Counted from the first letter of the stretch, positions 5,006-45,500 are shown. The stretch: 64,000 bases of DNA from Scenedesmus sp. PABB004 (GCA_014905635.1 JABVCE010000009.1:682001-746000); one strand, 5' to 3'. Notes: generated from the sequence alone by a model not told the origin. Numbers and translations: made by a program.

Positions 5006-5547
5006 ATGCCGGTGACTGCGGAGCAGGTGGAGGCGGCGCTGCGCGAGGGGCTGGGCGCGAGCGACGCGGTGCGGGCACGCCGCGCCGTGCGCAGCGCAGC
5101 TGCCTGGGCGCGCGCCCTCACGCGCCGTCCCGCGCCGCGCCGCCGCGGCCGCACAGACGGTGCTGGACACGTCCGGCGGGTGCGGCGGCGCCTGGCGCCC
5201 GGGAAAGCGACGGCGGGGCCCTGCAGCGAATGCCGCGCGCGCCCGCCGCCGCCGCGCCGCGCGCAGGTGCGGGGCGGCGTTTGACGTCGCGGTGGTATCG
5301 GACGCGTTTGAGGGCAAGACGCCCATCGCCCGCCACCGCCTGGTGCGCCGCCTTGCGCTGGCGCCGCCGCGCGCGCGGCCGCCGGCGCCGCGGCCGCAAC
5401 GTCAACGCACCGCCGCAGATCCACGACGCTCTCGCGAGCGTGATGCCCGACATCCACGCGCTCAGCATCAAGCGCGCCTGGACGCGCGCGCAGCAGGCGG
5501 CGGCGCAGCAGCAGCAGCCCGCTCCCGCGGCGGCGGCGCCGAGCTGA
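5006..5547 (+). CDS. BOLA2: BolA-family protein (BolA2-like)
   Basis: MPVTAEQVEAALREGLGASDA|TVLDTSGG|CGAAFDVAVVSDAFEGKTPIARHRL|IHDALASVMPDIHALSIKRAWT; DTSGGCG, FEGK and IHAL motifs. Confidence 0.9.
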
Positions 5548-5599
5548 CGGGGGCGGCGCGGCGCGGCGCGGCGGCAGGGCACAGCGGCGGCGGGCACGC

Positions 5600-5604
5600 T
5601 GTAA
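5600..5604 (+). promoter_or_regulatory. TGTAA polyadenylation signal of BolA2
   Basis: TGTAA 53 nt after the stop codon. Confidence 0.55.
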
Positions 5605-5885
5605 CGCGGTCGCGCGCCCGGCTCCGCACCGTGCTCAAGAGCGGTCCCACGGTCAACTCCAGGCGCCCACGCCCAGCCACGCACACGCTCGCGCCGGCAG
5701 CAGCGGCGCAGCAGCGCAGCACGCCGCGCCGCCGCCGACACCGGCGCGTCGTGCCGCTGCCGGGGCAGGTGGTCCAAATCGAACTCTAAGAATCAGGGCC
5801 GCCAACTGCCGTGCGCTTGCTGCCTGGCGGGGCTCCACGCACGCCAGGGCGCCCTCGCCGGCGGCGCGGCATCTGCGCGCCCGCC

Positions 5886-8800
5886 ATGGCCGCTGCGGCG
5901 TTCGAGGAGCTGGGCGTGGCGCCCGAGCTGATCGCGGCGGTGGAGGATCTGGGCTGGACGTGAGCTGCGCGCGCTCCGGCGGCACCGCCGCGCCGCCGCG
6001 TGCGCCCGCCGCTGCTGCCGCTGCGCCGCGCTCGCGCCGGCGCCGGCCCCCCAGCGGCCCGCCTCCCCCCTGCTGCCTCTCTCTCTCTCCCGCGACGCAG
6101 GCTGCCCACGCCAGTGCAGGCGGAGGCGGTGCCCCTCATCCTCGGCGGCGGCGACGTGATGGCGGTGCGCAGCCGCAGCGGCGCCAGCGGCGCCAGCGGC
6201 CGCAGCGGCGGCAGCCGGCCGACGAACGCGACGACGGCCGCGCCGCCCCCGCCACTGCTGCCTCCGCAGGCCGCCGAGACGGGGAGCGGCAAGACGGGGG
6301 TGCGCCGCCGGCGCGCGCCGCACCGCGCACAGCGCGCCACCCCAGCGCGCGCCCGGGCCCGCCCGAGCTCTCCTCCCCCCTCCCCGCCCGCCCGGTCGCA
6401 GGCGTTCGCACTGCCCGTGCTGCAGATCGTGCACGAAACGCTGCAGGCCTGGGCGCGCGGCGCGGCGATGCACGGCGGCGGCGGCGCGGCGTCGGCCGCG
6501 CCGGCCGCGCCGCGGCGGCGCTGCGAGCTCAGCAGCGAAGACCGCGACGCTGCGCTCAGCGTGCGCGACGGCACCGCGTGCCAGTGCCGCGACGAGCGCG
6601 CGTGGGGCGGCGGCCGGGCCACGCTCGGCGCGTTTGCTGGGCGTGTGTACTACGAGGCGCGCCGCGCGGGGCGGGGCGGGGCCCGGGCCGGGGCGGGGCC
6701 GGGGCCGGGGCCGGGTGGCGGCAACGGCCGCGGCGCCACCCGCGTGCGGCGCCCGTCTCACGGCCGGTCCCCGCGCGCCCGCACCGGCAGGCCGAGGTGT
6801 GCGACGAGGGCCTGTGCCGCGTCGGCTGGGCCACGCACGCGGCCAGCTATGACATCGGCACCGACCGGCAGAGCTTTGGATACGGCGGCACTGGTGCGCG
6901 CCTACCGCCCGCGCCGCGCTCCGCCACGCGCGCGCCCCACGCGGCGCTGCGCGCGCGCCCCACGCGGCGCTGCGCGCGCGCCCTCCCGCTCGGCGCGGCA
7001 CGCGCTCGCCCTCCCGCGCGGCGCGGCACGCGCACGCCCTCCCGCGCCGCGCGGCGCGGCGCAGGCAAGCGGTCGCACGGGCGGCAGTTCGAGGACTACG
7101 GCGGGCCGTTTGGCGCGGGCGACGTCGTCGGCGCCTGCCTCGACGCCGAGTCGGGGGCGCTGAGCTTCACCAAGAACGGCGAGCCCCTCGGTGCCGCGTT
7201 CACGCTGCCCCAGATCCTGCGCGGACAGGCGCGGCGCACGCGCACGCGCACGCGCGCCGGCGCCGGCGCGCTCGACGGCCGGCGGCCGTCCCGCGTGCCG
7301 CCGCCCGCGCCCACGCGCGCCGCGCCGCGCCGCTGCGTGGCGCAGGTGCTGTACCCCGCGGTGTGCCTGAAGAACGCCGAGCTGCGGCTGAACTTCGGGG
7401 ACGCGCCGTTCAAGTGCGGCGCAGGGCGCCGGGGGCTGGCGTGGGCGCGCGGCGCGGCGCGCTGGCGCGCGGACGGCAGCGCCGCAGCGGCGCGAGCCCG
7501 TCACCGCCACCGCTGCCGTCGCGCGCCCTCCGTTGCGCAGGTTCGGCCCGCCGCCGGGGTTTGTCGGCATCGCGCAGGCGCCGCCCGACGTGACCGCGAC
7601 CGCGGCGGCGGCCGCCGCCGCGGCCGCGAGCAGCAGCGCGGCGCGGCAGCCGCTGTGCGTCGTGCTGGAGCCGTCGCGGTGCGCGGGCCGCCGCGCGGGC
7701 CGCCGCGCGCAGCCCCAGGGGCCTCTCTCACGTCGCCGCACGCGCCGCGCCGCCAGAGACCTGGCGGAGCAGACGCACAAGTGCTTCGAGGCGTACGGCC
7801 GCCGCCTCACGGCGCCGCCGGTGTCGAGCGCGCTCCTCGTCGGGGGCTCGACGCGGCGCCGCAGCTCGCGGCGCTGCGGGCGGGCGCCGAGATCGTGGTC
7901 GCCACGCCGGGGCGGCTCATGGACTTTGTTGAGAGCGGCAAGCTCCCGCTCGGCAGGGTGCGGCGCGACGGCGCCGCGCGCTGCTGCCGCCGCGCCGCCG
8001 CCGCCTGCACGCCGTCGCCGCCGCGCGCCGCCGCCGGCTGCGCGCCATGCCGCCGCGCCGGCGCCGCCTGTGCGCCGCGCGACGGCGCCGCCACACTTGG
8101 TCCCTGCGCCGCGTGCGTGGCCCCAGGTTCGCTTCCTGGTGCTGGACGAGGCCGACCGCCTGGTGGCCGACGCAGCCGACGTGGTGGCTAAGCTCTTCGC
8201 CCGCCTGCCCAAGGGCGGCGCGGGCGCGGCGCGCCTGCAGGCGCGGGGCCCGCGCGCCAGCCGGGCGGGGCGCGGCGAGCCAGCCGCGGCGCGCGCCCGC
8301 GCGCGTGCGTGCGCGACGCCTGCTGCTGCCTCTCACGCGCGCGCGCGCGCCCCCAGGTGCTGATGTTCAGCGCGACGCTGCACTCGCCGGAGGTCAAGCG
8401 CCTCGCCGCCACAGTCTGCCAGCAGCCGCTGCTGGTGCGGCGCGCGCTGCCGCCCGCGCCGCGCGCTGCCGCGCGCTGCCGCCTGTGTGTGCCGCCGATG
8501 CACGCCCACGCGCGCGGCGACCCGCCCTGCCCTGCCCGCCCGGGGCCCAGGTGGACCTCAAGGGCAAGGACGCCGTGCCTGAGACCGTTGACCACGTGCT
8601 GGTCCGCGTCGACCCCGCCGCCGACGGGTCGTGGCTGCAGACCACGCCCAAGGCGCGCACGCGCACGCGCGCGCACGTGTGCACGCGCGCACGCCGCCGC
8701 CGACGCGCTCGCTGCCGACGCTGACGCGCCGCACCTCCTCCTCCCCACCCCCCTGCCCAGGTCTTCACCGACGGCGTGCACGCGCTCGACACCGTCGGCC

Positions 8801-10399
8801 CCGCGTCGCGCACGCCCGAGGCGGCGAGCGAGGGCGTGAAGCGGCTCAAGCAGCGCCTGCTCGCGCGGCTGCTCGACGCGCACGCGGCCGCCGGCCAGGC
8901 GCTCATCTTCTGCCGGACCAACCACGACTGCGACAACCTCGAGCGCTTCCTCAATGCCCTCGGTGACCGCGCTGCGCGCTGTGCTGCGCTGTGCTGCGCT
9001 GTGCTGCGCTGTGCTGCGCTGTGCTGCGCTGTGCTGCGCTGTGCACGCTGTGCAGGCTGTGCTGCGCTGTGCTGCGCGGTGCGCGCCCAGGCCGCGGCCC
9101 CCGCCAGCCTCCGCGCCCGCGCTCAGCGCGCCCGGCCCCGCGCGCGCGCGCAGGCGGCGGCGGCGGCGGCCGCGCGCGGGGCCCGCGCGAGAGCGGCAAG
9201 GAGCACCCCTACTCGTGCCTCGTGCTCGCCGGCGCGCGCAGCATGGACGAGCGCCGCGCCGCGCTGCAGGCGCGCGCTGCGCCGCGCGCGCCTCGGCGCC
9301 CGAGCGCCCGCCCGCGCGCTGGCCCGCGCAGCGCCTTGACAACCCCTCCCACGCCCACCCGCCCGTCCACCCACATCCGCCACCCCGTGCCGCCGCCGCC
9401 TTGCAACCCCCGTGGCCAGGCGTTCAAGGACGGCGGCGTGCGCCTCCTCATCGCCACCGACGTCGCGGCGCGCGGGCTGGACGTGAGCGGGCTGCCGTGC
9501 GTCATTAACATGACGCTCCCGGACCGCAGCGAGGACTACGTGCACAGGCGCGGGGCTTGGGGTTTAGCGCGCGCGCGGGGGGACCCCGCCGTGGCCCTGG
9601 CGCGCCGGCCCCGCGCGCCCGCGGCTGGGCTGCGCGCCGCGCGAGAGAGGACAACGGGGCCTCCGCCGCCGCCGCCGCGCGCTCGCGCCGCGCCGCGCCG
9701 AAGGGTGGGGCGCGTGGGCCGCGCCGACCACATGGGCCTCGCCATCAGCCTCGTGTCGACGGTGCCGGAGAAGGCGCGCCGCCGCGCGGGCCGCGGGCTG
9801 CGGGCAGGCGGGGGCGCCGCGCGCTGAGAGGGGGCGGGTCGTCGAGCCTCGGCGCGCGCGCTGCGCGACGCTCGCGACATGCCGCGCCCCGCGCGGCGCC
9901 GGGCGCAGGTGTGGTTCTGCACCGTCAAGGGCCTCAAGCCCTGGCTGCAGCCCGACGCGAGCAACACCAAGACGCAGGAGCAGGGCGGGCACACCGTGTG
10001 GTGCACGGCGCGGCGGCCGTGTGCGCCGACCGCGCGCGCCGCCGGGGGCCGACGCGCGCGGCCGGGGGCTGATGCGCCCGCCGCCGCGCTGCGCCGCGCG
10101 CCGCCGGGCGCAGGTACGACGAGCCCGGCCTGCTGGCGTCGATCGAGGCGCGGCTGTCGGCGCCCATCCCGCCGCTGAACGACGACCTGAGCCTGCCGGC
10201 GGGCATCGCGGCGCGGCTCGCGGGCGAGGGCGGCGCGTACGGGCAGGCGCGCGGCGGCGCGGCGGGGTGCGCGGAGGCCGCGGAGCGGCTCGCGGGCATC
10301 CGGCAGAACGTGGAGGCCCTGGCGCAGCTGGAGCGGCAGGCGCAGACCAGCTTCCTGCTGCTCAAGCGCAAGTGGGGCGCCGTCGCGATGGAGTCTTGA
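5886..10399 (+). CDS. DDX1: DEAD-box RNA helicase DDX1 (SPRY insertion), many exons; apparent 1-nt frameshift at ~7842-7846
   Basis: FEELGVAPEL, LPTPVQAEAVPLILGGGDVMA, AETGSGKTG, SPRY (RVGWA...FGYGGTG...YGGPFGAGDVVG...FTKNG...YPAVCLKNAELRLNFG), [35 protein letters not shown]. Confidence 0.95.
8976..9075. repeat. Intronic 10-bp tandem repeat (GCTGTGCTGC)n, ~9 partly degenerate copies
   Basis: Directly visible in a DDX1 intron. Confidence 0.9.
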
Positions 10400-16881: not shown

Positions 16882-17214
16882 CGCTGCCGGCCCGCGCTGG
16901 CGGCCCCGAGGTCCAAGAGGCGAGGCTGACCGTCCCAGCAAGCGAGCGCGGCGCGGCGGACAGCGAGTCGGCCGGGGGCGGGGTTGAAGCTGCTGCTGCT
17001 GCTCTCGGGAGTCGGGGGAAGCAGCGCCGCGTGGACGCGTTGGGCGCGCGCGGGGGCGTCGACGGGACGGTGTGAGGGCGTGGGCGGGCAACGGGGCGGC
17101 TCCTGGCCACCGTGCAGGAAGCGAGCGGGCGGGCACCGTCGCGACGCCGCCGGCGCTTCGTCACACACCGCGCTCGCGCTGCAGGCTTCGGCACGGACCG
17201 GGCGCCACACGAGT

Positions 17215-18080
17215 TTACCTCCCGCTCTCAGCGGGGCCCGCAGCGGTGGTGGCGTTGCCGCCGCTCGCGCCAGCGGTGGCGTTGCTGGCGCCGGCACCTG
17301 TGGGCGCCACTGCCGACGCCTCCCCCGCCGCCGCCGCCCCCGCCGCCACTCCCGCCGCCACTGCCGGCTGCGGCGAGGGTGCCGCCGCCGCGCCAGCCGC
17401 GCTGCCGCCCTCCGCTCCTGGCGCGGCGGCCGAGGGTGCTTTCGCCGCCGCGCCGCCGACAGCGGCCTGCTCCGCTGCGGGCTGCTCGCCTGCAGCCTGC
17501 TCCGCTGCGGGCTGCTCGCCTGCAGCCTGCTCCGCTGCGGGCTGCTCCGCTGCAGCCTGCCCTGCTGCGGGCTGCTCCGCTGCAGCCTGCCCTGCTGCAG
17601 AGTGCTCCGCCTGCTCCGCCTGCTCCGCCCGCTCCGCCTGCTCCGCCTGCTTTTCCGCGGCCTGCTCCGCCGGCGGGCGCGGCTCCGGCGCGGGCGGCGC
17701 GCCGCCGGGCGCCGCCTTGCGCACTTGATAGCCCGGCCTGCGTGCGCGCGCACACACGCGGCGGTGACGGCGGCGGCGCGGCCGTGCACGGCGAGCATGG
17801 CGGCGAGCGAGCGACGCACGGCGCCGCCCCACCGCGGCGCCGCCCTGCCCGCGCACCGCTCGGCGGCGAGGCCGCCGCCCGTGCCGGTCGCCCAGATCGC
17901 CAGGACCAGCACGAGGGCGACCAGGACCAGCACGCCAGAGTAGAGCAGACGGTTGTGGCGGCTGCGGACGCCCAGGCGCGACAGCAGGTCCGCGCGCCCG
18001 GCGGGCGCGAGGCCCATGTCCAGCGCCAGCTCCCGCAGGTGCTTGCCCGTCCCCAGCGGCGCGCTGTGCGCGGTGCGCAT
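17215..18080 (-). CDS. Hypothetical single-pass membrane protein with Ala/Glu/Gln/Pro repeat tail
   Basis: MRTAHSAPLG...RLLYSGVLVLVALVLVLAIWATG (TM helix), GT-AG intron ~17856-17737, then AEQA/AAEQPAAGQA repeats; 3' end uncertain. Confidence 0.55.
17462..17600. repeat. Coding 30-bp tandem repeat (AxEQPAAxQA units)
   Basis: GCAGCCTGCTCCGCTGCGGGCTGCTCGCCT-like unit repeated 4-5 times. Confidence 0.85.
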
Positions 18081-18579
18081 CGCGGCGGGTGGCGAGCAGC
18101 GGCGCGCTGCTGCTGCTGCCGCGCCGACGCCGGCGGTGCTGCAGGCGGAGCGATGAGTTCGAGGGCGGAACGCGGAGCTCCTGGGCCGCGTGCAGCGCGG
18201 CGGGCTGGCACGCGGCGACCGCCGGAAGCAGCGGCGAGAGCAGCGCGCAGGCGTGCGGAGCGCCGCCAGCCCTGGCCTTGTGCACGGGCGGTGTGCGTGG
18301 CGCAATGCGCGCGCAGGCGGCAGCGAAGGTTACTTTGAGAAGCAGGCGGCAGGCGGCGGTTCACGGAAAGCGAAGCGCGGCCGCTCGGCGCCGAGCGCAT
18401 CGGAGGCCTGGGCGTCCGCGCCCCAGTGAGCGGCAGCCTGGCGCCCGAGCTCCGGGCAAACGCGCAAAGCGAGCACGCGACCCCGCGTTCGACGCCGGCG
18501 CTGCCGCCGCCGCACCTGCCGCCGGCGCCAACCTCGCTGCCGCCCGAGCGCGTGCGTGCGTGCCTCGACGGCACCCACG

Positions 18580-21130
18580 ATGCGCCTGCTGCTGGCCTGC
18601 GCCGGCGGCGGGGACCGCACGCGCGGCGCCGCCGCCGCCGGCGGCGCCAAGGACCCCGCGCGCGCGCCGGGCGCGCCGGGCTGCGCGCTGGCCGCGCCGC
18701 GTCGGCGCAGCCCCAACGGCGCGCCCGTGCCCGGCGCGGCCAGCCCCGGCGAGCTGCTGCCGCACCTGCGCGCGCACGGGCGCGGCATCCTGGCGGCGTC
18801 GACGCTGCAGCCGGGGCTGAGCCACTTTGTGGTGCCTGGCGTGGGGTACATCGCGTACGCGCTCATGTTCAACGGCCCCGAGCTGCTGCGCATCCTCACG
18901 CCCGTCGCGCTGGGCGACCCCGTGTGCGCGCGCGAGCACGTGGGCGACCTGGCGGCGGCCTTCCTGCGCCAGCACCCCAAGGCCATCTTCCTGCAGGCGC
19001 GCGCCGGGAAGGGGCCTGGCCAGGGTGGCCGCGAGCTGCCGCGGCAGGCCGCGCCGCCGCTCACGCACTGCCGCCGCCGCAACGATCACCAGATCAGCGC
19101 CGAGTTTGCCGAGGTGCTGCAGGCCCAGGGTCTGCTCATCAACTCGGTGGGCGGCGAGACGCGGCTCGACCTGGCCACCTACACCTTTGCAGGTGAGGCC
19201 GGCAGCGCTGCAGCTGACGCACGCGCCACGGCGCGCCGCGGGCCGCCGTCCCCCGTCGCCCGCCCGACCGCCGCCCGGCGCCTGCCCGCGCGCGCGCCCG
19301 GCGCAGGCCACGCCAAGCGCGGGCTGCGCAGCGCCATTGCCTCGGCCGCCAAGAGCGGCATCACCGTGCACGAGGTGCTGCGCGCCGACGACGAGAGCGG
19401 CGACGACTGGCGCGGCCTGGCGGCGGAGATGGCCGGCGTGGACAGCGCCTGGGTCGCTCGCAAGGGCAGGCACGCGGGTGAGCCGCCGCGCCGCGCTGGC
19501 AGCGCGGCGCGCCTAGGCCATGGCCAGCACGCCCGCTGGCCGCCGCAGCAGCCAGCGCTGACCCGCGTGCGCCCGTGTGCCTGCCCGCCCCGGGTCGCCA
19601 GGCCGCGTGTGGTTCATCAACCGCCTGCCCGTGTTTGCGCCCGAGCCGGGCGTGCGCAAGCTGGTCGCGCGCGACGCGGGCGGGCGGCTGCTCGGCTTCA
19701 TCTTCTTTGACGCCGTGTGGGAGGGCGGCGCCGTGGCGGGCTGGTACGCCAACGTCACACGCATGGCGCCCCACGCGCACCCGGGCGTGCTCAACCTCAT
19801 CGTCAAGCACTTCATCGACACGTGCGCGCCGCCGCCGCCCAGCGCCGCCGCCCAGCACGCGCGCCGGCCGCCGCCGCCGCCCTGTTGCGGAGGTCGGACG
19901 CCCGCGCCGCCGCCCACGCTGCCCCGCGCCACGCCGCAGCGAGCGCGCCGAGGCGCACCTGGCGGCGCCCGCCAAGAAGCTGAGCGTGCGGCGCTCGACG
20001 CGGCGCAAGGCCGCGGCGGCGGCCGCCGCCGCGGCGGCCGCCGCCGCGGCGGCCGCGGGCGACGACTGCGGCGGCAGCGACGCGTGCGCCGCGGGCGGCC
20101 GCGACCAGGCGGCGCCGGGCGGCACGGAGGCGGCCGCGCCGCGCGGCGCCGCGGGGCCGCGCTTCCTCTCGCTCGGGCTGTCGCCCTTCCACCAGATGGA
20201 CGACTGCGGCTTTGCCTCGAGCGGCGCGGTGCGCCCCGCCGCCGGCCTGCCCCCCCCCCCCCCCCCCCCCCGCGCGCCCACCACCCACGCGCGCCTGCTG
20301 CCGCCGCCGCCGCGCGTGCACGTGCGCAGGTGCGGCGCGTCTTTGCGTTTGCGCACCGCCAGGGCGCCATGTACTACCCGTTCCAGCCCCTCGCCGCCGC
20401 CAAGGCCAAGTACGGCGGCGGCCTGCACGGCGGCAAGCACGGCGACCCCGCCGTGGCGTACGTGCAGGTGTGGCGCGGCGCGGCGCGGCGCGGCGGGGCG
20501 GGCTGCGGCGCGGCGCCGGCCGCGCGCGGGCTCACTGCGGTCACCGCGCGCGCGAGGCGCCGCGTGCAGGCGTTTGTGGCGCACCGCATGCCCGCGCCGC
20601 TCGCGTGTGGCACCATGTTTGACCTCGGACGCCTCGTCGGCTTTTTCCGCGACCCGTCCAGCGCGGCAGCCACGTTTGTCGCACACCGGCTGCGCCTCGC
20701 GGCGCGCTGGCTCGCGAGCCGCGGCTCCGGCGACGGCTGCGGCGGCGCGGGCGGGCCGGGGCTGCGCGGCGGCGCGGGCGCGCCGCCGGGCTGCTGCCTG
20801 CGCGGCGGCCGCCGCGGCTGCGGCGCTGGCGCCCGCGCCGTCGCCGAGCTGGAGCTGCCCGCGCCCGCGCCCGCGCCTGCGCCGCGGAGCCCCGCCAAGG
20901 CCAAGCTGGCGCTGGCGCGGCCCGTGGTGCCGCCCTCGGCCCGGCAGCTCGCGCAGGCGTTCAGCCGCCGCACCAGCGTCGGCTTTGGCAGCGTGAGCAG
21001 CCTGAGCAGCGCCGGCGGCAGCGGCGCGCTGCGCAGCGAGGGCAGCCTGATCGGCACGGCGCCGCGCCCCCCGAGCGTGAGCGAGCTGGGCAGCAGCTGG
21101 AGCGCCGGCAGCAGCGTGGCGGCGGAGTGA
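18580..21130 (+). CDS. Stand-alone DUF2156 / MprF C-terminal (aminoacyl-tRNA-dependent transferase) domain protein, paralog A
   Basis: GYIAY...ALGDPVC, GGETRLDLATYTFAG|HAKRGLRSAI, VDSAWVARKG, LLGFIFFD, ANVTRMAPHAHPGVLNLIV, FLSLGLSPF, YPFQPLAAAKAKY correspond in order to MprF-family LGDPVG, GEEA.VDL..F...G...LR, W...K, .D(L)MR....P.G, F.LG.APL, Y.FQGL..FK.K motifs. Confidence 0.8.
18739..20204 (+). repeat. Left arm of ~1.46-kb near-identical inverted repeat (partner 23141-24600)
   Basis: Reverse complement of 23141-24600 including introns, with few differences (e.g. ETRLD vs ETQLD, small intron indels). Confidence 0.95.
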
Positions 21131-22270
21131 GTGAGGGCGCGGAGTGCTGGCGCTGGGCGCTGGGCACGCCGCGGTGGTGAGCCAGCGGCCGTTGTTGCTG
21201 GCGCGCGGCGCGGCGCTCGAGCCTGAGCTCGGGCCTGAGCTGGAGCCTAAGCTCGGACCGCACGGAGGCCGGTTGCAATTGCAAGTGAGCGCGCGCGTGA
21301 GTTGAAACCGCCGGGCGCCTGTCAACGGTGCGGCCTGTCAAACCGTCAAACGCTCCTGCCGCTCCGGCCAGCATGCGCCGCCCGCCGTCCGTCGTCCGGC
21401 CGCGCAGCCCGCCGCCGCACCGCAGAGTTCCGAGCGCGCCGCTGCCTGCCGCTGGGCACAGCCGCAGCTCTCGTGCGTTTCATTCATCATCGGCGCACAA
21501 GCGCCGCCTGCCATGCGCCGCCCGCCGAGGGGCGGCCGGGTGCACGGCACAGCTCACACAGCACAGCAGAGAGCGTGTCGCCGTGTGCCGGCGCGCGCGT
21601 AAACGGGGCCCGCCGCCGCGTCCGCGTCCGCGGGCAGGCTGGAGGGGGCGCGTCGTCGCGACGGCCGTCGCAGCCGTGCGGTTGGGTTGGGAAGGGATTG
21701 GCTCGCCCAAAGAAAAGAAAGGTGGGGCCCGTGGCTTTGTGTTCCTGACCACGCACCACGCACGCGCCACGAGCTAGGCCTGCCTACCCCGCGGCGCCGG
21801 CGCGAGCCGCCTGTGCGGCGGCGCGGCGCGGCGCGCGACACAGGCGCGGTGCGTGCCGCCAGCCGTGCGGCGGGCCGGCGGCCGGGCACGCGCGGCAACG
21901 GCAGCAGCTACGCGCAGCTCGCCCGCACCCGCGTCGCATATGACTACTACTGCTCTCCAGGACAATCGGCTAGTATTGGGTTGCGCGGTCAGCGAAAAGA
22001 GACAGAGACAGATGCGTTGGCGCCCCCGGGCTCTGCAGGAAAGCCAAAGCCAAAGCCAATGCCAGGCAAGGGAAGGCGCTCGCTCGGGGCCGGGCTGCGG
22101 CCGCTCCCACGCGCCGCGCCGGCGATGGCCAGGCCTGCTGGCCTGGCCTGCGGCCGGCAGGCGCACACGACACGACAGCACACACACACATAACTCACGC
22201 GCGACGCACACGCACGACAAAGGGGCGCGGCCGGGCGCCGCCGCCCCGGCGCCGCACAGCGGCCGCGGGC

Positions 22271-24929
22271 TCAGTCGGCGCGGCGCCCGGCGCTCGCGCA
22301 GCTGCTGGCGCTGCTGAACCACACGTCCGAGCCGGCGCTGCCGCGTGGCGAACCGGGGCCGTTGAACGCGGTGCCAATGAGGGACGCCTCGGTCAGCGTG
22401 GCGCTGGCCGCGTTGAGGCTCCGCGTGGCGCCGCCGCCGCTGGCGCCGCCGCCGAGCTTGGCCGCCACGGCCGGCGTGCGGGCGCCGCCGGCGTCGCCGC
22501 CGGCGCCGGGCGCGGGCGGCGGCGCGCCGCTTTCCTCGCCGCCACGGCCGCCGCGGCCGCGCGCGCGCAGGCGCTGGACCTGGTGCGCCAGCAGGCCGGC
22601 CGCCGCGCCGGCGGGGTGGCGCCAGAAGCCGACAAACTTGCCGACGTCAAACATCGCGATCGGCCCGGCGGGGCCGGCGTGCGGGTGCGCGACGTAGACC
22701 TGCACGGATCGGCGGCGGCGCGGTTGGCGCGTTGGCACAGGCGCAAGGATCTTGCGCGCGCGCACCGCCCGGCTGCGGCGCGGCTCGCGGCGCGGCGCGG
22801 CGCGCGCGCGAGCTCGCCTGCGTGTAGGTCACGGCGGGGTCCTCGTAGCGCCCGCCGTGCAGGCCCGCGCCGTACTTGGCCTTGGCGGCGGCGAGGGGCT
22901 TGTAGGGATAGAAAGCGCCGCCGAGGCGGAAGCTCAGCTCCAGCGCAGAGCGCACCTGCGCGGCGCGCGAGTGGGAGCGGGGACCGGGGGCGGGGACCAG
23001 GGGCGGGCGGGAGCGGGCGTCGGCCGCCTGGCAGGGGCGCGAAGCAGGCGGCGTGCCGCGGGCCGGCGGGCCGGCCGCGCGAGGGCGGCAGGCCGTGCGA
23101 GGGCGGCGGCGCGCGCCTTGGGGTTGTGGCGGAAGCGGGTGTCGTCCATCTGGTGGAAGGGCGACAGCCCGAGCGAGAGGAAGCGCGGCCCCGCGGCGCC
23201 GCGCGGCGCGGCCGCCTCCGTGCCGCCCGGCGCCGCCTGGTCGCGGCCGCCCGCGGCGCACGCGTCGCTGCCGCCGCAGTCGTCGCCCGCGGCCGCCGCG
23301 GCGGCGGCCGCCGCGGCGGCGGCCGCCGCCGCGGCCTTGCGCCGCGTCGAGCGCCGCACGCTCAGCTTCTTGGCGGGCGCCGCCAGGTGCGCCTCGGCGC
23401 GCACGCTGCGGCGTGGCGCGGGGCAGCGTGGGCGGCGGCGCGGGCGTCCGACCTCCGCAACAGGGCGGCGGCGGCGGCCGGCGCGCGTGCTGGGCGGCGG
23501 CGCTGGGCGGCGGCGGCGCGCACGTGTCGATGAAGTGCTTGACGATGAGGTTGAGCACGCCCGGGTGCGCGTGGGGCGCCATGCGCGTGACGTTGGCGTA
23601 CCAGCCCGCCACGGCGCCGCCCTCCCACACGGCGTCAAAGAAGATGAAGCCGAGCAGCCGCCCGCCTGCGTCGCGCGCGACCAGCTTGCGCACGCCCGGC
23701 TCGGGCGCAAACACGGGCAGGCGGTTGATGAACCACACGCGGCCTGGCGACCCGGGGCGGGCAGGCACACGGGCGCACGCGGGTCAGCGCTGGCTGCCGC
23801 GGCGGCCAGCGGGCGTGCTGGCCATGGCCTAGGCGCGCCGCGCTGCCAGCGCGGCGCGGCGGCTCACCCGCGTGCCTGCCCTTGCGAGCGACCCAGGCGC
23901 TGTCCACGCCGGCCATCTCCGCCGCCAGGCCGCGCCAGTCGTCGCCGCTCTCGTCGTCGGCGCGCAGTACCTCGTGCACGGTGATGCCGCTCTTGGCGGC
24001 CGAGGCAATGGCGCTGCGCAGCCCGCGCTTGGCGTGGCCTGCCGGGCGCGCGCGCGGGCGGGCGGGCGGCGGTCGGCGGGCGGCGGGCGAGGGGGACAGC
24101 GGCCCGCGGCGCGCCGCGGCGCGTGCGTCAGCGCTGCCGGCCTCACCTGCAAAGGTGTAGGTGGCCAGGTCGAGCTGCGTCTCGCCGCCCACCGAGTTGA
24201 TGAGCAGGCCCTGGGCCTGCAGCACCTCCGCAAACTCGGCGCTGATCTGGTGATCGTTGCGGCGGCGGCAGTGCGTGAGCGGCGGCGCGGCCTGCCGCGG
24301 CAGCTGGCGGCCACCCTGGCCACGCCCCTTCCCGGCGCGCGCCTGCAGGAAGATGGCCTTGGGGTGCTGGCGCAGGAAGGCCGCCGCCAGGTCGCCCACG
24401 TGCTCGCGCGCGCACACGGGGTCGCCCAGCGCGACGGGCGTGAGGATGCGCAGCAGCTCGGGGCCGTTGAACATGAGCGCGTACGCGATGTACCCCACGC
24501 CAGGCACCACAAAGTGGCTCAGCCCCGGCTGCAGCGTCGACGCCGCCAGGATGCCGCGCCCGTGCGCGCGCAGGTGCGGCAGCAGCTCGCCGGGGCTGGC
24601 GGTCACGCGACCGCCCCGCGGCGGCGGCGCGCCGCCCGGTCGGAGCTGCCGCTGTGACGATGCGCGGGCGGCGGCTGGCGCGTGAGGGCGGAGCCGCGCC
24701 GGCCGCAGGCGGCCCTGGGCCCGCGCAGCCGCCGCGCCCGCTGCCGCACCTTCAGCGCCGCCTTGGCCGCCGCGCGGCCGGCGGCTTGGTCGCCGCGCCG
24801 CGCCGCGGCCGCGTCGCGGGCGCCGGTGTTGACGTCCCCGCGCGCGTCAGGGCTCGCGAAGCCCGCCTCGCCACCGCCGGGCGCGACCGCCCTCGCCCCG
24901 CCAGCGCCGCAGCCGCCGAAGCACTGCAT
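22271..24929 (-). CDS. Stand-alone DUF2156 / MprF C-terminal domain protein, paralog B
   Basis: Starts MQCFGGCGAGG; same core as paralog A; diverged C-terminus FYPYKPLAAAKAKYGAGLHGGRYEDPAVTYTQ|VYVAHPH...MFDVGKFVGFWRHP. Confidence 0.8.
23141..24600 (-). repeat. Right arm of ~1.46-kb inverted repeat (partner 18739-20204)
   Basis: Direct comparison of the two arms. Confidence 0.95.
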
Positions 24930-42513: not shown

Positions 42514-45500
42514 TTACTTGCGCACCGCGGTGTAGAAGCTGGAGTACATGTTGACCTTGTCCATGTAGGTCCACTCGGCCCCCTCCTGCGCGCGGCTGAT
42601 GCACGTCACGCTGAACCCGGCGTCCGCGATGACCTGCCGTGGCGGGCGAGCGGCGGCGGCGGCGGCGCGGCGGGTGAGCGGCGGGCGGGCGGTGCTGCAC
42701 CTTGCGGCTTGTGGCGGCGCGCGGCGGGGCGGGCTGGCGCGTCGCAGCGCGCGCGTGCGCACCTGGGCGTAGGGCGGCGAGAGGCTGGCTGAGCGCCAGA
42801 TGATGATGCCGCCGGGCACGACCTGCTCCGCGAGCGTGGCCGCGAGCTCGCGCACGGTCCTGTCGTCGAGCCAGTCGACGTGGTCCATTAGGATGACCTG
42901 GCGGGAGGGGAGGGAGGCAGGGAGGGAGGGAGGGCGGAGCAGGGCGGAGCAGCGAGAGGGGAGGGAGCAGAGCAGGGTGAGCGCGGGTGGGGTGGGGGGG
43001 GGGAGTGTCGAGCGAGCGTGGCAGGGCGCGGCGCGCGGCGGGCGGCGGCGGGCCACGCGCGCGCGGCGGCGCGCGGCCGGCGCGCGCGCGTGCCTTGGAG
43101 TAGCGGCGCGCGCGCAGCTCTTCCAAGAAGAAGCCGCTGGCGATGGTGAGGCGGTCGATGAGGCCGCTCTGTGACACACGGGGCGGGGCGGGTGGGGGAG
43201 GGCGGGGGCAGGCAGGGTCGGCAGAGCAGAGAGAGGCGCGCAGAGCCCTACACGCGCACGCGGGGCGTGGTGCTGCGCTGGGCCCGGCGCTGCGCGCGGC
43301 GCTGCACGCGCCTTGAGGCGCGAAAAGCCGGCCTCGGTAAGGTACGAGGGGCAGTTGTCGCGCAGGAAGTGGCCGGTGATGCAGTTGTAGTAAAAGTAGT
43401 TGGAGCTCCGCAGGTGGCTGTTCTCGGCGATGCCTGCCGGTTCGACGCAGCGGGCGTCAGACCGCACAGCGCGGCGCGGCGGGTGGGCGGGGGCGGGGGT
43501 GAGGGCCCAGCGGGGCGGCGGGCGCCCCACGCGGCGGCGGCGGCGGCGCGGCGGCGGGCGCGGCGCGGCGGGCGGCGCGGCGGCGGGCGGCGGCGCGGCG
43601 GCGGGCGCGGCGCACCGTCGACGGTGCGCGCGAGGTAGGTCTCGATGGGGATGCCGTCGCGCTTGATGAGCGCGTACTGCTTGCCGGGCACGCCGCCGCC
43701 AAACCAGAGCACGACCCGGTTGAACAGCAGCAGCGCGAGCAGCTTGCTGAACAGCCACACGAGCAGGCGCGGGCCGCTCTTGCAAAAGTGCACGAGCGCG
43801 AGCGAGTCCCACTGGCGCCGCTGCTCGGCGAGCGTCGGCGCGTTGGCGAGGCGGCGCATCGCGAAGCTCAGCCCCGTGACGGTCGCGAGGCACTGCAGCA
43901 CCCAGCAGAGCTTGCCCTGGCGACGAGGCAGGCGGCGGGCGGCGGCGGCGTGGGCGCGGCGCCGGGGCGGCGGCGCGCTGCGGCGGGCGCAGCAGCCGCC
44001 CGGCGCCATGCGCGCAGGGCGCCCCTGCCCCGCGACGCTCCCCCGCCCCGCAGGCGCCGCCCCATGCGCCCCTCCCCCGCGGGCGCCCGCCCCGCGCCGC
44101 ACCATGCCGCCCTGGTAGTAGAGGCCCTGCTTGAAGTACCACAGCCGGCCCGCCCAGAAGGCGTAGGCCTTCTGGCTGAGGTACGGCCCCAGGCGGCTCT
44201 CAAACAGGCGGCCGATGTAGGGGTGCCTGCCCTCGCCAAACATCTGCCACACGTCCTCAAACTCCAGCTGCTCGATCGCGACCTTTTTGAGCTCGAGCAG
44301 GCTGCTCTGCGCAGGGTTGCAGTCCACGCTCACGACGTGCCCCGCGCCGTGCAGCAGCAGGTTGAGCGCGTTGCAGCCGCCGCTCGTGAGCGTGAGCACC
44401 GTGTCGTCGCCGTTGATGCGCATCACCTGGCGGTGCCAGGGTTGAACCAACAGCGCCAGACGGCCGGCGGCCGGGTCGGCAGCGGCGGCGGCGCGGCGCG
44501 CTGCGCGGCTCGCGCGCGCTGCCAGCCCGCGGGTTCAAGCGCCGCCGCGCGGCGCACCCGCATGTCGGGCTCCGGGTCCTCCCACGACTGGGTGTAGAGG
44601 AAGGTCGGCGGGAAGAGCGCCGGCGCCTCGACGCGCTGCTCGTGGTGCAGCTGCTTCGCCGCGTCCGCCCACGGCCGGCCCAGCCACACGCAGAACGGCG
44701 CGCGCAGGTAGGGCACCCAGGGGATGCTGCCCTCTGCGCGGCGTCCGGGCGCGGCGGCGCGCGGGCCGCGGCCGGTCAGCGACCCGGACGGCGCGCACGC
44801 GCCGGCGGTGGGCCGCGCTCCAGGCTGCCCCCCGACCGCTCCCCGACTGCTCCCCGCGCGCGCGCGCGCGCCCGGCCGTCCCCGGGCGCCAGGCTGGCCG
44901 CGCCGGCGCGCCGCGCGCCGCACCCGAGTTGACCTCCCACAGGCGCTCGAGCTTGGTCTCCAGGTAGGCGCGGCGCTCGGGGCCAATGTCGATGTTGTCA
45001 ATGTCAAAGATGGACCTGAGGGAGAACAAGGGTTTAGGGAAAACAAGGGTTTAGGGAAAACAAGGGTTTAGGGAGCCGGCGGACGGACAGCAGGCGGGCG
45101 GGCGGGCGGGCAGTGAGCGCGCGCGCGGCTGGAGGGAGCCGGGGCAGGGCATGGCGGCGGCGCGGGCAGGGCGGCGGCGGCGCGGGGCAGCGGCGGCGGC
45201 CGGGCGGCGCGGGCGGCGCGGCGGCCGCACCGCCAGAAGAAGCGGCGCGCCCAGTGCATCTGGCGCAGCGGCGTGTCGTACTTGGCCGACACGAAGAAGT
45301 CGGTGAGGCCGAGCAGCCCCGACGGCGACAGCTGCGACACCGCGTTGTCCACGGCGTCGTGGAACGGCGGGATCACTGCGCACCGGGCGCGGACGGCGAC
45401 GCGCGGGGGCGCGGTGTGGGCCCGGGCGCGCGCGCGAGGCGCGGCGGCGCGCGCGCGCGGGGCCCGTCCCCCGCACGGCGAGGCTGCGCGCTGCGCGCGG

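Follow-up and report, generated by a model that had tools for sequence, protein, structure and literature searches.

The transfer of amino acids from aminoacyl-tRNA to membrane lipids was long held to be a prokaryotic trait, and its demonstration in fungi dates from 2020-2022. Passages of a 2017 review state that no eukaryotic examples of tRNA-dependent lipid aminoacylation had been identified (PMC6103681), and passages of a 2022 paper describe such enzymes as apparently absent from non-fungal eukaryotes, yet speculate on other eukaryotes (PMC8913301). The bacterial MprF carries a flippase domain besides its synthase domain, which belongs to Pfam family PF09924 (LPG_synthase_C or DUF2156, gathering cut-off 27.5 bits). 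The fungal ergosteryl-aspartate synthase ErdS is a fusion of AspRS and DUF2156, and the fungal ergosteryl-glycine synthase ErgS is a free-standing DUF2156 protein with variable N-terminal extensions, as described in parts of PMC8913301. Enzymes of the VlmA/Sbb17/FemX type share the tandem-GNAT fold and the tRNA-dependent chemistry and act on small-molecule or peptidoglycan-precursor acceptors; VlmA, PacB and others are listed in passages of the review among the acceptor-diverse DUF2156-fold enzymes (PMC6103681). In this work, we describe a pair of intron-containing genes, A and B, in a stretch of 64,000 nucleotides (nt) from the green alga Scenedesmus sp. PABB004 (GCA_014905635.1 JABVCE010000009.1:682001-746000), hereafter the window, with positions counted from its first letter. 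The sequence comparisons suggest that the pair probably encodes two functional paralogous free-standing DUF2156 aminoacyl-tRNA transferases, which would use aminoacyl-tRNA as the amino-acid donor for esterifying a membrane lipid.

Gene models, family membership and fold

Gene A lies at 18580..21130 on the plus strand (631 amino acids (aa), 7 exons, stop included) and gene B at 24929..22271 on the minus strand (611 aa, 8 exons, stop included). The genes are convergent (tail-to-tail), with the two start codons, ATG 18580 (+) and ATG 24929 (-), at the outer ends of the pair and a unique 1.1-kb spacer without inverted repeat (21131..22270) between the two stop codons, where both 3' ends meet. No TGTAA poly(A) signal was found in the 18-26 kb stretch, spacer included. 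The closest relatives of both proteins come from Tetradesmus obliquus (P0001, P0002 and P0004) and Scenedesmus sp. NREL 46B-D3 (P0003), with 54-59% identity over about 430 residues, and these are annotated as hypothetical proteins. By joining frames with Tetradesmus P0001 as a guide, the exons of gene A were placed at 18580-18996, 19093-19192, 19307-19477, 19602-19821, 19940-20228, 20330-20467 and 20570-21130 (+), and those of gene B at 24929-24750, 24651-24343, 24246-24147, 24038-23868, 23743-23524, 23405-23117, 22955-22818 and 22699-22271 (-). The introns measure 96 (GC-AG), 114, 124, 118, 101 and 102 nt in A, and 98, 96 (GC-AG), 108, 124, 118, 161 (GC-AG) and 118 (GC-AG) nt in B, all 13 modelled introns being 96-161 nt long with GT-AG or GC-AG ends. 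The conserved motifs sit in different frames and come into a single open frame after removal of six introns from A and seven from B. Six intron positions per gene are exact gaps in the P0001 alignment (tblastn, for which P0002 was also used), and the first intron of gene B (24749-24652) was set by frame logic and splice signals only. The last exons of A and B may contain further introns; their frame is supported by the SLIGTA motif near the C-terminus, which is common to A, B and P0003. The GC content at third codon positions (GC3, 0.95-0.96), as compared with that at second positions (GC2, 0.61) and in introns (0.86), also supports coding. The share of GC-AG introns (4/13, one in A and three in B) is high, perhaps as a characteristic of this genome of roughly 80% GC.

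An earlier note, made from the DNA alone, had described a motif-bearing pair of intron-containing genes of the PF09924/DUF2156 family with an expected double GNAT fold. The motifs that it quoted are all present in the translations, namely LGDPVC, GGET(R/Q)LDL, WVARKG, TRMAPHAHPG, LSLGLSPF and YPFQPL/YPYKPL...AAAKAKY, and splicing leaves an open frame in both genes. Without splicing, contiguous stretches match PF09924 in the correct order (profile positions 79-123 and 178-231) with 18-21.5 bits, which is below the cut-off; the introns split the domain. The cut-off was exceeded by all nine homologues scanned (65-244 bits), namely P0001-P0004 and five others. After splicing, A and B each reach 202 bits (E about 4e-58, Z = 1e6) over positions 28-333 of 344 of a bacterial profile, which was built solely from 85 free-standing bacterial DUF2156 open reading frames (ORFs). 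All 14 of these ORFs that were scanned by Pfam are PF09924-positive, and none of 22 reversed or shuffled control proteins was reported against the profile at E <= 1000. By the spliced sequence models, A and B are full-length DUF2156/PF09924 proteins, in agreement with the family named in the earlier note. Among PDB sequences, the profile of a mixed alignment (A1) finds the MprF synthase domains over the whole domain at E 3e-43 to 5e-36 and ErdS at 2.7e-10. The profile of the alga-type alignment (A2) finds MprF/LpiA domains at E 1e-11 to 6e-7 and no ErdS chain in the PDB at E <= 0.01. Pairwise similarity to MprF is weak (E 0.002-0.08 for P0001).

As a proxy for the window proteins, an AlphaFold model was built of the orthologue P0003, which is 59% identical to gene B, from a 49-sequence alignment. 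The model has a predicted local distance difference test (pLDDT) score of 78.9 and a predicted template modelling (pTM) score of 0.74. Foldseek ranks 1-17 against the PDB are all MprF synthase/DUF2156 domains (5vrv, 4v36, 6lv0, 7duw, 7f47, 4v34/35, 9j8q/s, 9goe and 6lvf) at E 1e-16 to 1e-9, with template modelling (TM) scores of 0.70-0.83 on isolated MprF/DUF2156 domains, and ranks 18-27 are FemX and Sbb17/Sba18 at E about 1e-7 and TM about 0.5. As modelled, the orthologue P0003 is a tandem GNAT fold that is nearest to MprF synthase domains and then to FemX, which bears out the double GNAT fold. The MprF synthase domain (4v36, 4v34, 5vrv, 6lv0, 7duw, 7f47) has the Pfam family, the tandem-GNAT fold, a basic helix and a K-x-K-Y motif in common with the algal proteins. 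The matches from rank 18 on bear on an alternative, according to which A and B would be aminoacyl-tRNA-dependent transferases with a non-lipid acceptor, such as a soluble metabolite, a peptide or an amino group on a protein, in the manner of VlmA, peptide synthases of the Sbb17/Orf11 type or FemX. The same fold occurs in FemX and Sbb17/Sba18, and VlmA and PacB appear in the review passages cited above; against this, the match to MprF is far closer (E 1e-16 to 1e-9) than that to FemX and Sbb17 (about 1e-7), and the TM scores differ accordingly. No sequence-level match to VlmA, Sbb17 or FemX was obtained in the pairwise and A1/A2 profile searches of the PDB. We regard a non-lipid acceptor as unlikely.

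The free-standing architecture follows from the gene models and from Pfam scans of stop-to-stop ORFs, which took in those of 100 aa or more from 7.4 to 37.9 kb and, in the rest of the window, those of 170 aa or more. The conserved domain is preceded by 52 residues in A and 76 in B. The highest 19-residue Kyte-Doolittle mean is 1.39 and falls inside a GNAT-core strand; the lack of a transmembrane segment in A and B would also suit a non-lipid acceptor. No membrane-domain or synthetase family was found upstream of either gene in these scans, and neither the gene models nor the window ORFs scanned contain a tRNA-synthetase domain. Furthermore, the score of the orthologues against NF033480, the NCBIfam equivalog model of bifunctional MprF, is only 53 bits, with a cut-off of 600. 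With no flippase domain, no fused synthetase and this low equivalog score, A and B are DUF2156 members that are neither MprF nor ErdS, so the statement of the earlier note that both domains are missing was correct. Among the fungal enzymes, ErgS is free-standing like the algal proteins, whereas ErdS has the fused AspRS that they lack. A feature search of a protein atlas placed an Ascomycota PF09924 cluster first (0.94), which we take as a lead only.

Conserved residues and the proposed activity

The residues that are conserved in the family are kept in both copies. All 55 columns that are invariant in an 11-sequence eukaryote-type alignment are kept in A and in B, and so are 18 of the 19 columns conserved at >=90% across the 49 sequences, the exception being a change from Y to W in both. 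GGETRLDL and the basic helix HAKRGLRSAIASAAKSG, which joins the GNAT halves, are encoded in gene A at 19093..19360 (+), a stretch that runs from exon 2 through intron 2 into exon 3, with the counterpart segment of gene B at 24246-23985 (-). In A as in B, the 22 residues around HAKRGLRSAIASAAKSG have a net charge of +4; the segment is aligned to helix 137-150 in the P0003 model and corresponds to Pfam profile positions 79-123. Passages of two papers give a positively charged helix between GNAT I and GNAT II a role in binding the tRNA acceptor arm (PMC8913301, PMC6103681), and the basic helix was neutralised in ErgS according to one of them (PMC8913301). The lysine of AAAKAKYG (K-x-K-Y-G) is conserved in 47 of the 49 sequences and in both copies, and aligns with FKEKY of 4v36. 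A conserved basic residue at the transesterification site, FemX K305 or ErdS R914, is described in parts of PMC13219428, and we infer from the alignment that the AAAKAKYG lysine takes this position.

In addition to these shared residues, the clade has features of its own. The second GNAT half carries an insertion of about 65 residues, which in gene A (19940..20140, +) begins with the basic stretch PAKKLSVRRSTRRK (+6) and continues as poly-Ala and low-complexity sequence. It is present in A, B, P0001-P0004, P0006, P0009 and P0010, is absent from P0005, P0018, P0019 and P0027, and breaks the match to the bacterial profile into two. In the P0003 model it forms helix 283-301, followed by residues 305-318 with pLDDT under 50. 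The domain is followed by an extra conserved helix, MFD[VL]G..[VL]GFW (helices 410-423 and 429-462 of the model), and by a disordered C-terminal tail of 100-150 residues. The large insertion and the long disordered tails, together with the modest match of the alga-only profile to MprF (1e-11 to 6e-7), would fit a second alternative, in which the fold is kept with no tRNA-dependent catalysis and the proteins use another acyl donor (acyl-CoA, as in ordinary GNATs) or serve as lipid- or RNA-binding regulators. We consider such a role quite improbable, in view of the retention of all clade-invariant and nearly all family-wide residues, including the basic helix and the K-x-K-Y-G lysine. Moreover, bacteria and eukaryote-type members conserve the domain over its whole length, which favours the usual chemistry of the family.

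The N-termini are MRLLLAC in gene A and MQCFGGC in gene B. The cysteines to which the earlier note drew attention are present and are not peculiar to the window: a Cys within residues 2-10 occurs in 8 of 13 eukaryote-type members, which are not independent of one another, compared with 12 of 85 bacterial ORFs, for which start codons were set heuristically, and 12 of 95 other library representatives. In plants, S-acylation of N-terminal cysteines alone is known to target CBL2/3/6 proteins to the tonoplast. Acylation of the N-terminal Cys in A and B is plausible by analogy. The overall net charge is +28 in A and +23 in B. Conserved N-terminal cysteines and a high positive charge suit an enzyme at the membrane surface and speak against a non-lipid acceptor.

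We hypothesize that A and B act as membrane-lipid aminoacyl-tRNA transferases in the following way. Each protein would be peripheral on the cytosolic face of a membrane, anchored there through S-acylation of its N-terminal cysteines and through its strongly positive charge (+23 to +28, basic insertion included). The basic helix between the GNAT halves would bind the acceptor arm of an aminoacyl-tRNA supplied by a separate synthetase, and the amino acid would be passed as an ester to a hydroxyl group of a membrane lipid, which may be a glycerolipid head group, diacylglycerol, a glycolipid or a sterol. Stabilisation of the transition state would fall to the conserved AAAKAKYG lysine. Most differences between the paralogues lie in the final third of the domain and in the N- and C-terminal tails, and therefore the two enzymes may differ in location, amino acid or acceptor.

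Bacterial relatives and the origin of the clade

A HMMER search with P0001 against 1.84 billion representatives yielded 663 proteins at E <= 1e-3, of which 344 are at E <= 1e-10, mostly of about 330-400 aa. Scans of a metagenome collection and a species-genome collection added 37 and 48 loci with intron-free genes, which are 25-35% identical to the query P0003 (tblastn, best segment) over most of the domain. Several bacterial free-standing representatives show 33-38% identity to the window proteins in blastp. The named bacterial sources are Thermodesulfobacteriota, Candidatus Obscuribacterales, Desulfobacterales/Syntrophaceae, Oceanospirillaceae (Bermanella), Noviherbaspirillum/Massilia and Pirellulaceae. 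These free-standing bacterial DUF2156 proteins (about 325-400 aa) have the same single-domain architecture as the algal ones, which differ from them in the introns, the N-terminal Cys motif, the insertion of about 65 residues, the extra C-terminal helix and the disordered tail.

A quick maximum-likelihood tree of 64 rows was computed from A, B, 10 eukaryote-type and 5 other library proteins, and the 47 of 85 bacterial ORFs that passed a redundancy filter. It is midpoint-rooted only, it contains no fungal, VlmA or MprF sequences, and long branches and odd composition were flagged for the window rows. The eukaryote-type sequences form one clade of 13 rows with a Shimodaira-Hasegawa-like approximate likelihood ratio test (SH-aLRT) support of 99, in which a eukaryotic source name is carried by P0001-P0005 only, and this clade is sister to four Thermodesulfobacteriota-type proteins (SH-aLRT 99). 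The eukaryote-type clade probably descends from free-standing bacterial enzymes. By comparing the profile searches, in which A2 finds no ErdS and A1 finds ErdS at 2.7e-10 against 3e-43 for MprF, a bacterial origin independent of the fungal genes is likelier than shared ancestry. The earlier note did not point out this position of the clade, beside free-standing bacterial DUF2156 proteins rather than, judged by the profiles, beside fungal ErdS.

The gene contexts of the bacterial relatives give some indication of their substrates. A gene for HMG-CoA reductase (HMGR) lies within 150 bp and on the same strand beside 27 of the 85 bacterial ORFs, which belong to one Desulfobacterota-type subclade, and its identity was confirmed by Pfam (PF00368 and the PF25653 N-terminal domain) in L011, L013, L023, L030 and L035. 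Loci with this arrangement include L011:9950-15471, L035, L013/L014/L015, L023 and L030. In L011, L057 and L075 there are two DUF2156 copies, each beside an HMGR gene, and those of L011 are two tandem DUF2156-HMGR pairs; a CMAS/UbiE-like methyltransferase often adjoins such genes. DUF2156-HMGR is a conserved cluster that links a tRNA-type transferase to isoprenoid metabolism, of which we found no description. For the algal proteins, this link is a hint from the wider family only, because the subclade is not the one nearest to the algal clade. An alpha/beta-hydrolase gene directly adjoins the DUF2156 gene, divergent or immediately downstream, in L001, L040, L042, L043 and L047, which are Candidatus Obscuribacterales and a similar metagenome contig, and a patatin gene adjoins it in L002. 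The pairing of synthase and hydrolase is presented in parts of PMC7334510 as a hallmark of aminoacyl-lipid systems (MprF, ErdS). The adjacency in Obscuribacterales resembles the synthase-hydrolase pairs of MprF and ErdS/ErdH. Other bacterial loci contain CMAS-like methyltransferases, a fatty-acid hydroxylase with a glycosyltransferase, or a fatty acyl-CoA reductase. By analogy, such neighbours make lipid acceptors the likelier ones for free-standing DUF2156 proteins at large, and for the algal proteins they are indirect evidence. The frequent position of bacterial relatives beside hydrolase, patatin, HMGR or fatty-acid genes counts against a non-lipid acceptor for A and B, which on the other hand is supported by the nearest bacterial locus, L038, where no lipid gene adjoins. 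The bacterial genes stand in operon-like contexts (hydrolase, HMG-CoA reductase, methyltransferase), whereas the algal pair has no such neighbour in the window.

The inverted pair, its neighbourhood and its meaning

To the account given by the earlier note we add that A and B are an inverted, partly 99%-identical pair, which points to an old duplication that was partly homogenised by gene conversion. The repeat search places arm 1 at 18739..20212 (+), from part of exon 1 to the middle of exon 5 of gene A with introns included, and arm 2 at 23133..24600 (-), in the corresponding part of gene B. Over about 1.47 kb the two share 99% identity, with 35 differing columns in 1476, mostly in intron 2, where there are indels, and their synonymous divergence (dS) across 340 codons amounts to 0.019. 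A run of 22 C occupies 20250-20271 (+) in intron 5 of gene A, just past the end of the near-identical block, and is absent from gene B. The 3' part of gene A (20213..20826, +) is diverged and can be aligned by blastn to 22428-23132 of gene B, the blastn identity over the whole of 18739-20826 being 86.7%. Between A and B, the N-termini have a dS of 0.79 and a ratio of nonsynonymous to synonymous divergence (dN/dS) of 0.77 (53 aligned codons, 40% aa identity), the 3' third of the domain has 0.68 and 0.63 (94 codons, 50% aa identity), and the tails have 0.54 and about 1. The dN/dS of 0.63 in the unconverted part of the domain is counted in favour of working genes, as a probable sign of purifying selection. 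A 99% block between old flanks (dS 0.5-0.8) suggests an old duplication followed by recent gene conversion of the 5' two-thirds.

The high identity of the arms raises the further alternative that these are not two working genes, and that the pair is a fold-back assembly artefact or one copy, most likely A, a decaying pseudogene. The 99% identity over 1.47 kb, the 22-nt poly-C run in intron 5 of A and the greater divergence of A in the 3' part of the domain would agree with it, and the independent contigs are too short to span the arm boundaries. These come from two freshwater-metagenome DNA runs of one study, which contained 0.10 and 0.05 of the window's words. The cleanest contig pieces on the window are 177-272 nt long with 1-3 differing letters, most others are low-likeness GC-rich fragments, and none of the pieces crosses an arm boundary or a splice site. 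Nevertheless, we judge this alternative highly improbable. The identity ends inside the genes, the N-termini, 3' parts and tails differ (dS 0.5-0.8), intron 2 has indels, and such a mosaic pattern does not fit a fold-back assembly error. Moreover, both spliced frames are open with 55/55 invariant columns, and Tetradesmus also has two family members, OEZ86_005320 and OEZ86_005321, whose locus tags are consecutive and which share a 5.66-Mb contig. In a tree of the unconverted 3' part, A groups with OEZ86_005321 (P0004) and B with P0001-P0003, with low supports of 43 and 40, and an A+B clade is compatible with the data (approximately unbiased test, p-AU 0.37).

Several points weigh against the interpretation of A and B as lipid-aminoacylating transferases. 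Since the contiguous pieces are below the Pfam threshold, the family call depends on the splicing model, and the fold evidence for the window proteins is by proxy, from the model of P0003, an orthologue that shares 59% identity with gene B. DUF2156-fold enzymes also serve non-lipid acceptors (VlmA, Sbb17). Sequence does not reveal the amino acid or the acceptor, and passages of PMC8913301 report that specificity was not found to correlate with clade. The lipid-gene contexts are not those of the four nearest bacterial rows, and the nearest locus, L038, adjoins an autoinducer-synthase-like gene and a GNAT gene. The dN/dS values (0.63 for the 3' part of the domain, about 1 for the tails) are relaxed, and gene A has diverged further than gene B in that part of the domain. 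No hydrolase gene was found by Pfam among the scanned ORFs of the window.

The window has a GC content of 72-83% (2-kb bins). A SPRY domain followed on the same strand by a helicase C-terminal domain marks a DDX1-like gene at 5444-9824 (+), a NUP160/120 nucleoporin lies at about 26.9-27.6 kb (-) and RPC34 at 55.1-56.8 kb (+), all from the Pfam scan. These three confirm that this is a eukaryotic nuclear contig. The NUP160/120-like gene is upstream of gene B on the same strand and starts within about 0.6-2 kb of it. Pfam also recognised pieces of genes for malate dehydrogenase, a TXD17-like thioredoxin, BolA, a leucine-rich-repeat (LRR) protein, a TrmB-type methyltransferase, PAP_fibrillin, a DUF3419 protein, a DEAD-box helicase and ferredoxin. 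The DUF3419 gene (PF11899) lies at 42517-44534 (-) in two frames of one gene (167 and 88 bits), and a Microchloropsis locus annotated DUF3419 is a putative homologue of the betaine-lipid synthase BTA1 in the relevant passage of PMC10685587. It is a second lipid head-group gene about 18 kb from the pair, with no evidence of a functional link. PAP_fibrillin and the DUF3419 gene fit a photosynthetic eukaryote, and with Tetradesmus and Scenedesmus as the best named relatives, the green-algal assignment of the earlier note stands. Directly upstream of gene A, 16988-17725 (+) and 17231-18862 (-) form a repetitive low-complexity region rich in Ala, Gln, Glu and Pro, where a 'Decapeptide repeat' Pfam match is weak (27 bits, under the cut-off). 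Neither tRNA genes nor Rfam families were found in the window.

What is new here is the lineage, with chemistry so far not described there; the kind of enzyme is already known. The DUF2156 domain has already been tagged automatically on Tetradesmus and Scenedesmus proteins in public databases, and we found no paper on an algal DUF2156/MprF-type enzyme in the literature. The word 'alga' is absent from the main texts of PMC7334510, PMC8913301 and PMC13219428, the supplements of which may hold taxon lists. We tentatively propose, as a possibility short of the probable, that a green-algal lineage (this organism, Tetradesmus, Scenedesmus and some eukaryote-type relatives) makes steryl or glyceryl amino-acid esters from aminoacyl-tRNA by means of cysteine-anchored free-standing transferases, which would be of bacterial origin independent of ErdS/ErgS, the two members of the pair having different amino-acid or lipid specificity. 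If true, photosynthetic eukaryotes would thereby gain their first example of tRNA-dependent lipid aminoacylation. The locus is, moreover, a clean example of an old inverted gene pair that is partly identical through gene conversion. An intact, conserved and apparently selected algal pair is a concrete candidate outside fungi, and it has tractable relatives in Tetradesmus and Scenedesmus. If the enzymes are active, they would represent a second, independent transfer of lipid-aminoacylation chemistry from bacteria to eukaryotes. It would also mean a new class of algal membrane lipid, with relevance to stress physiology, to interactions with bacteria and antimicrobial peptides, and to lipid biotechnology.

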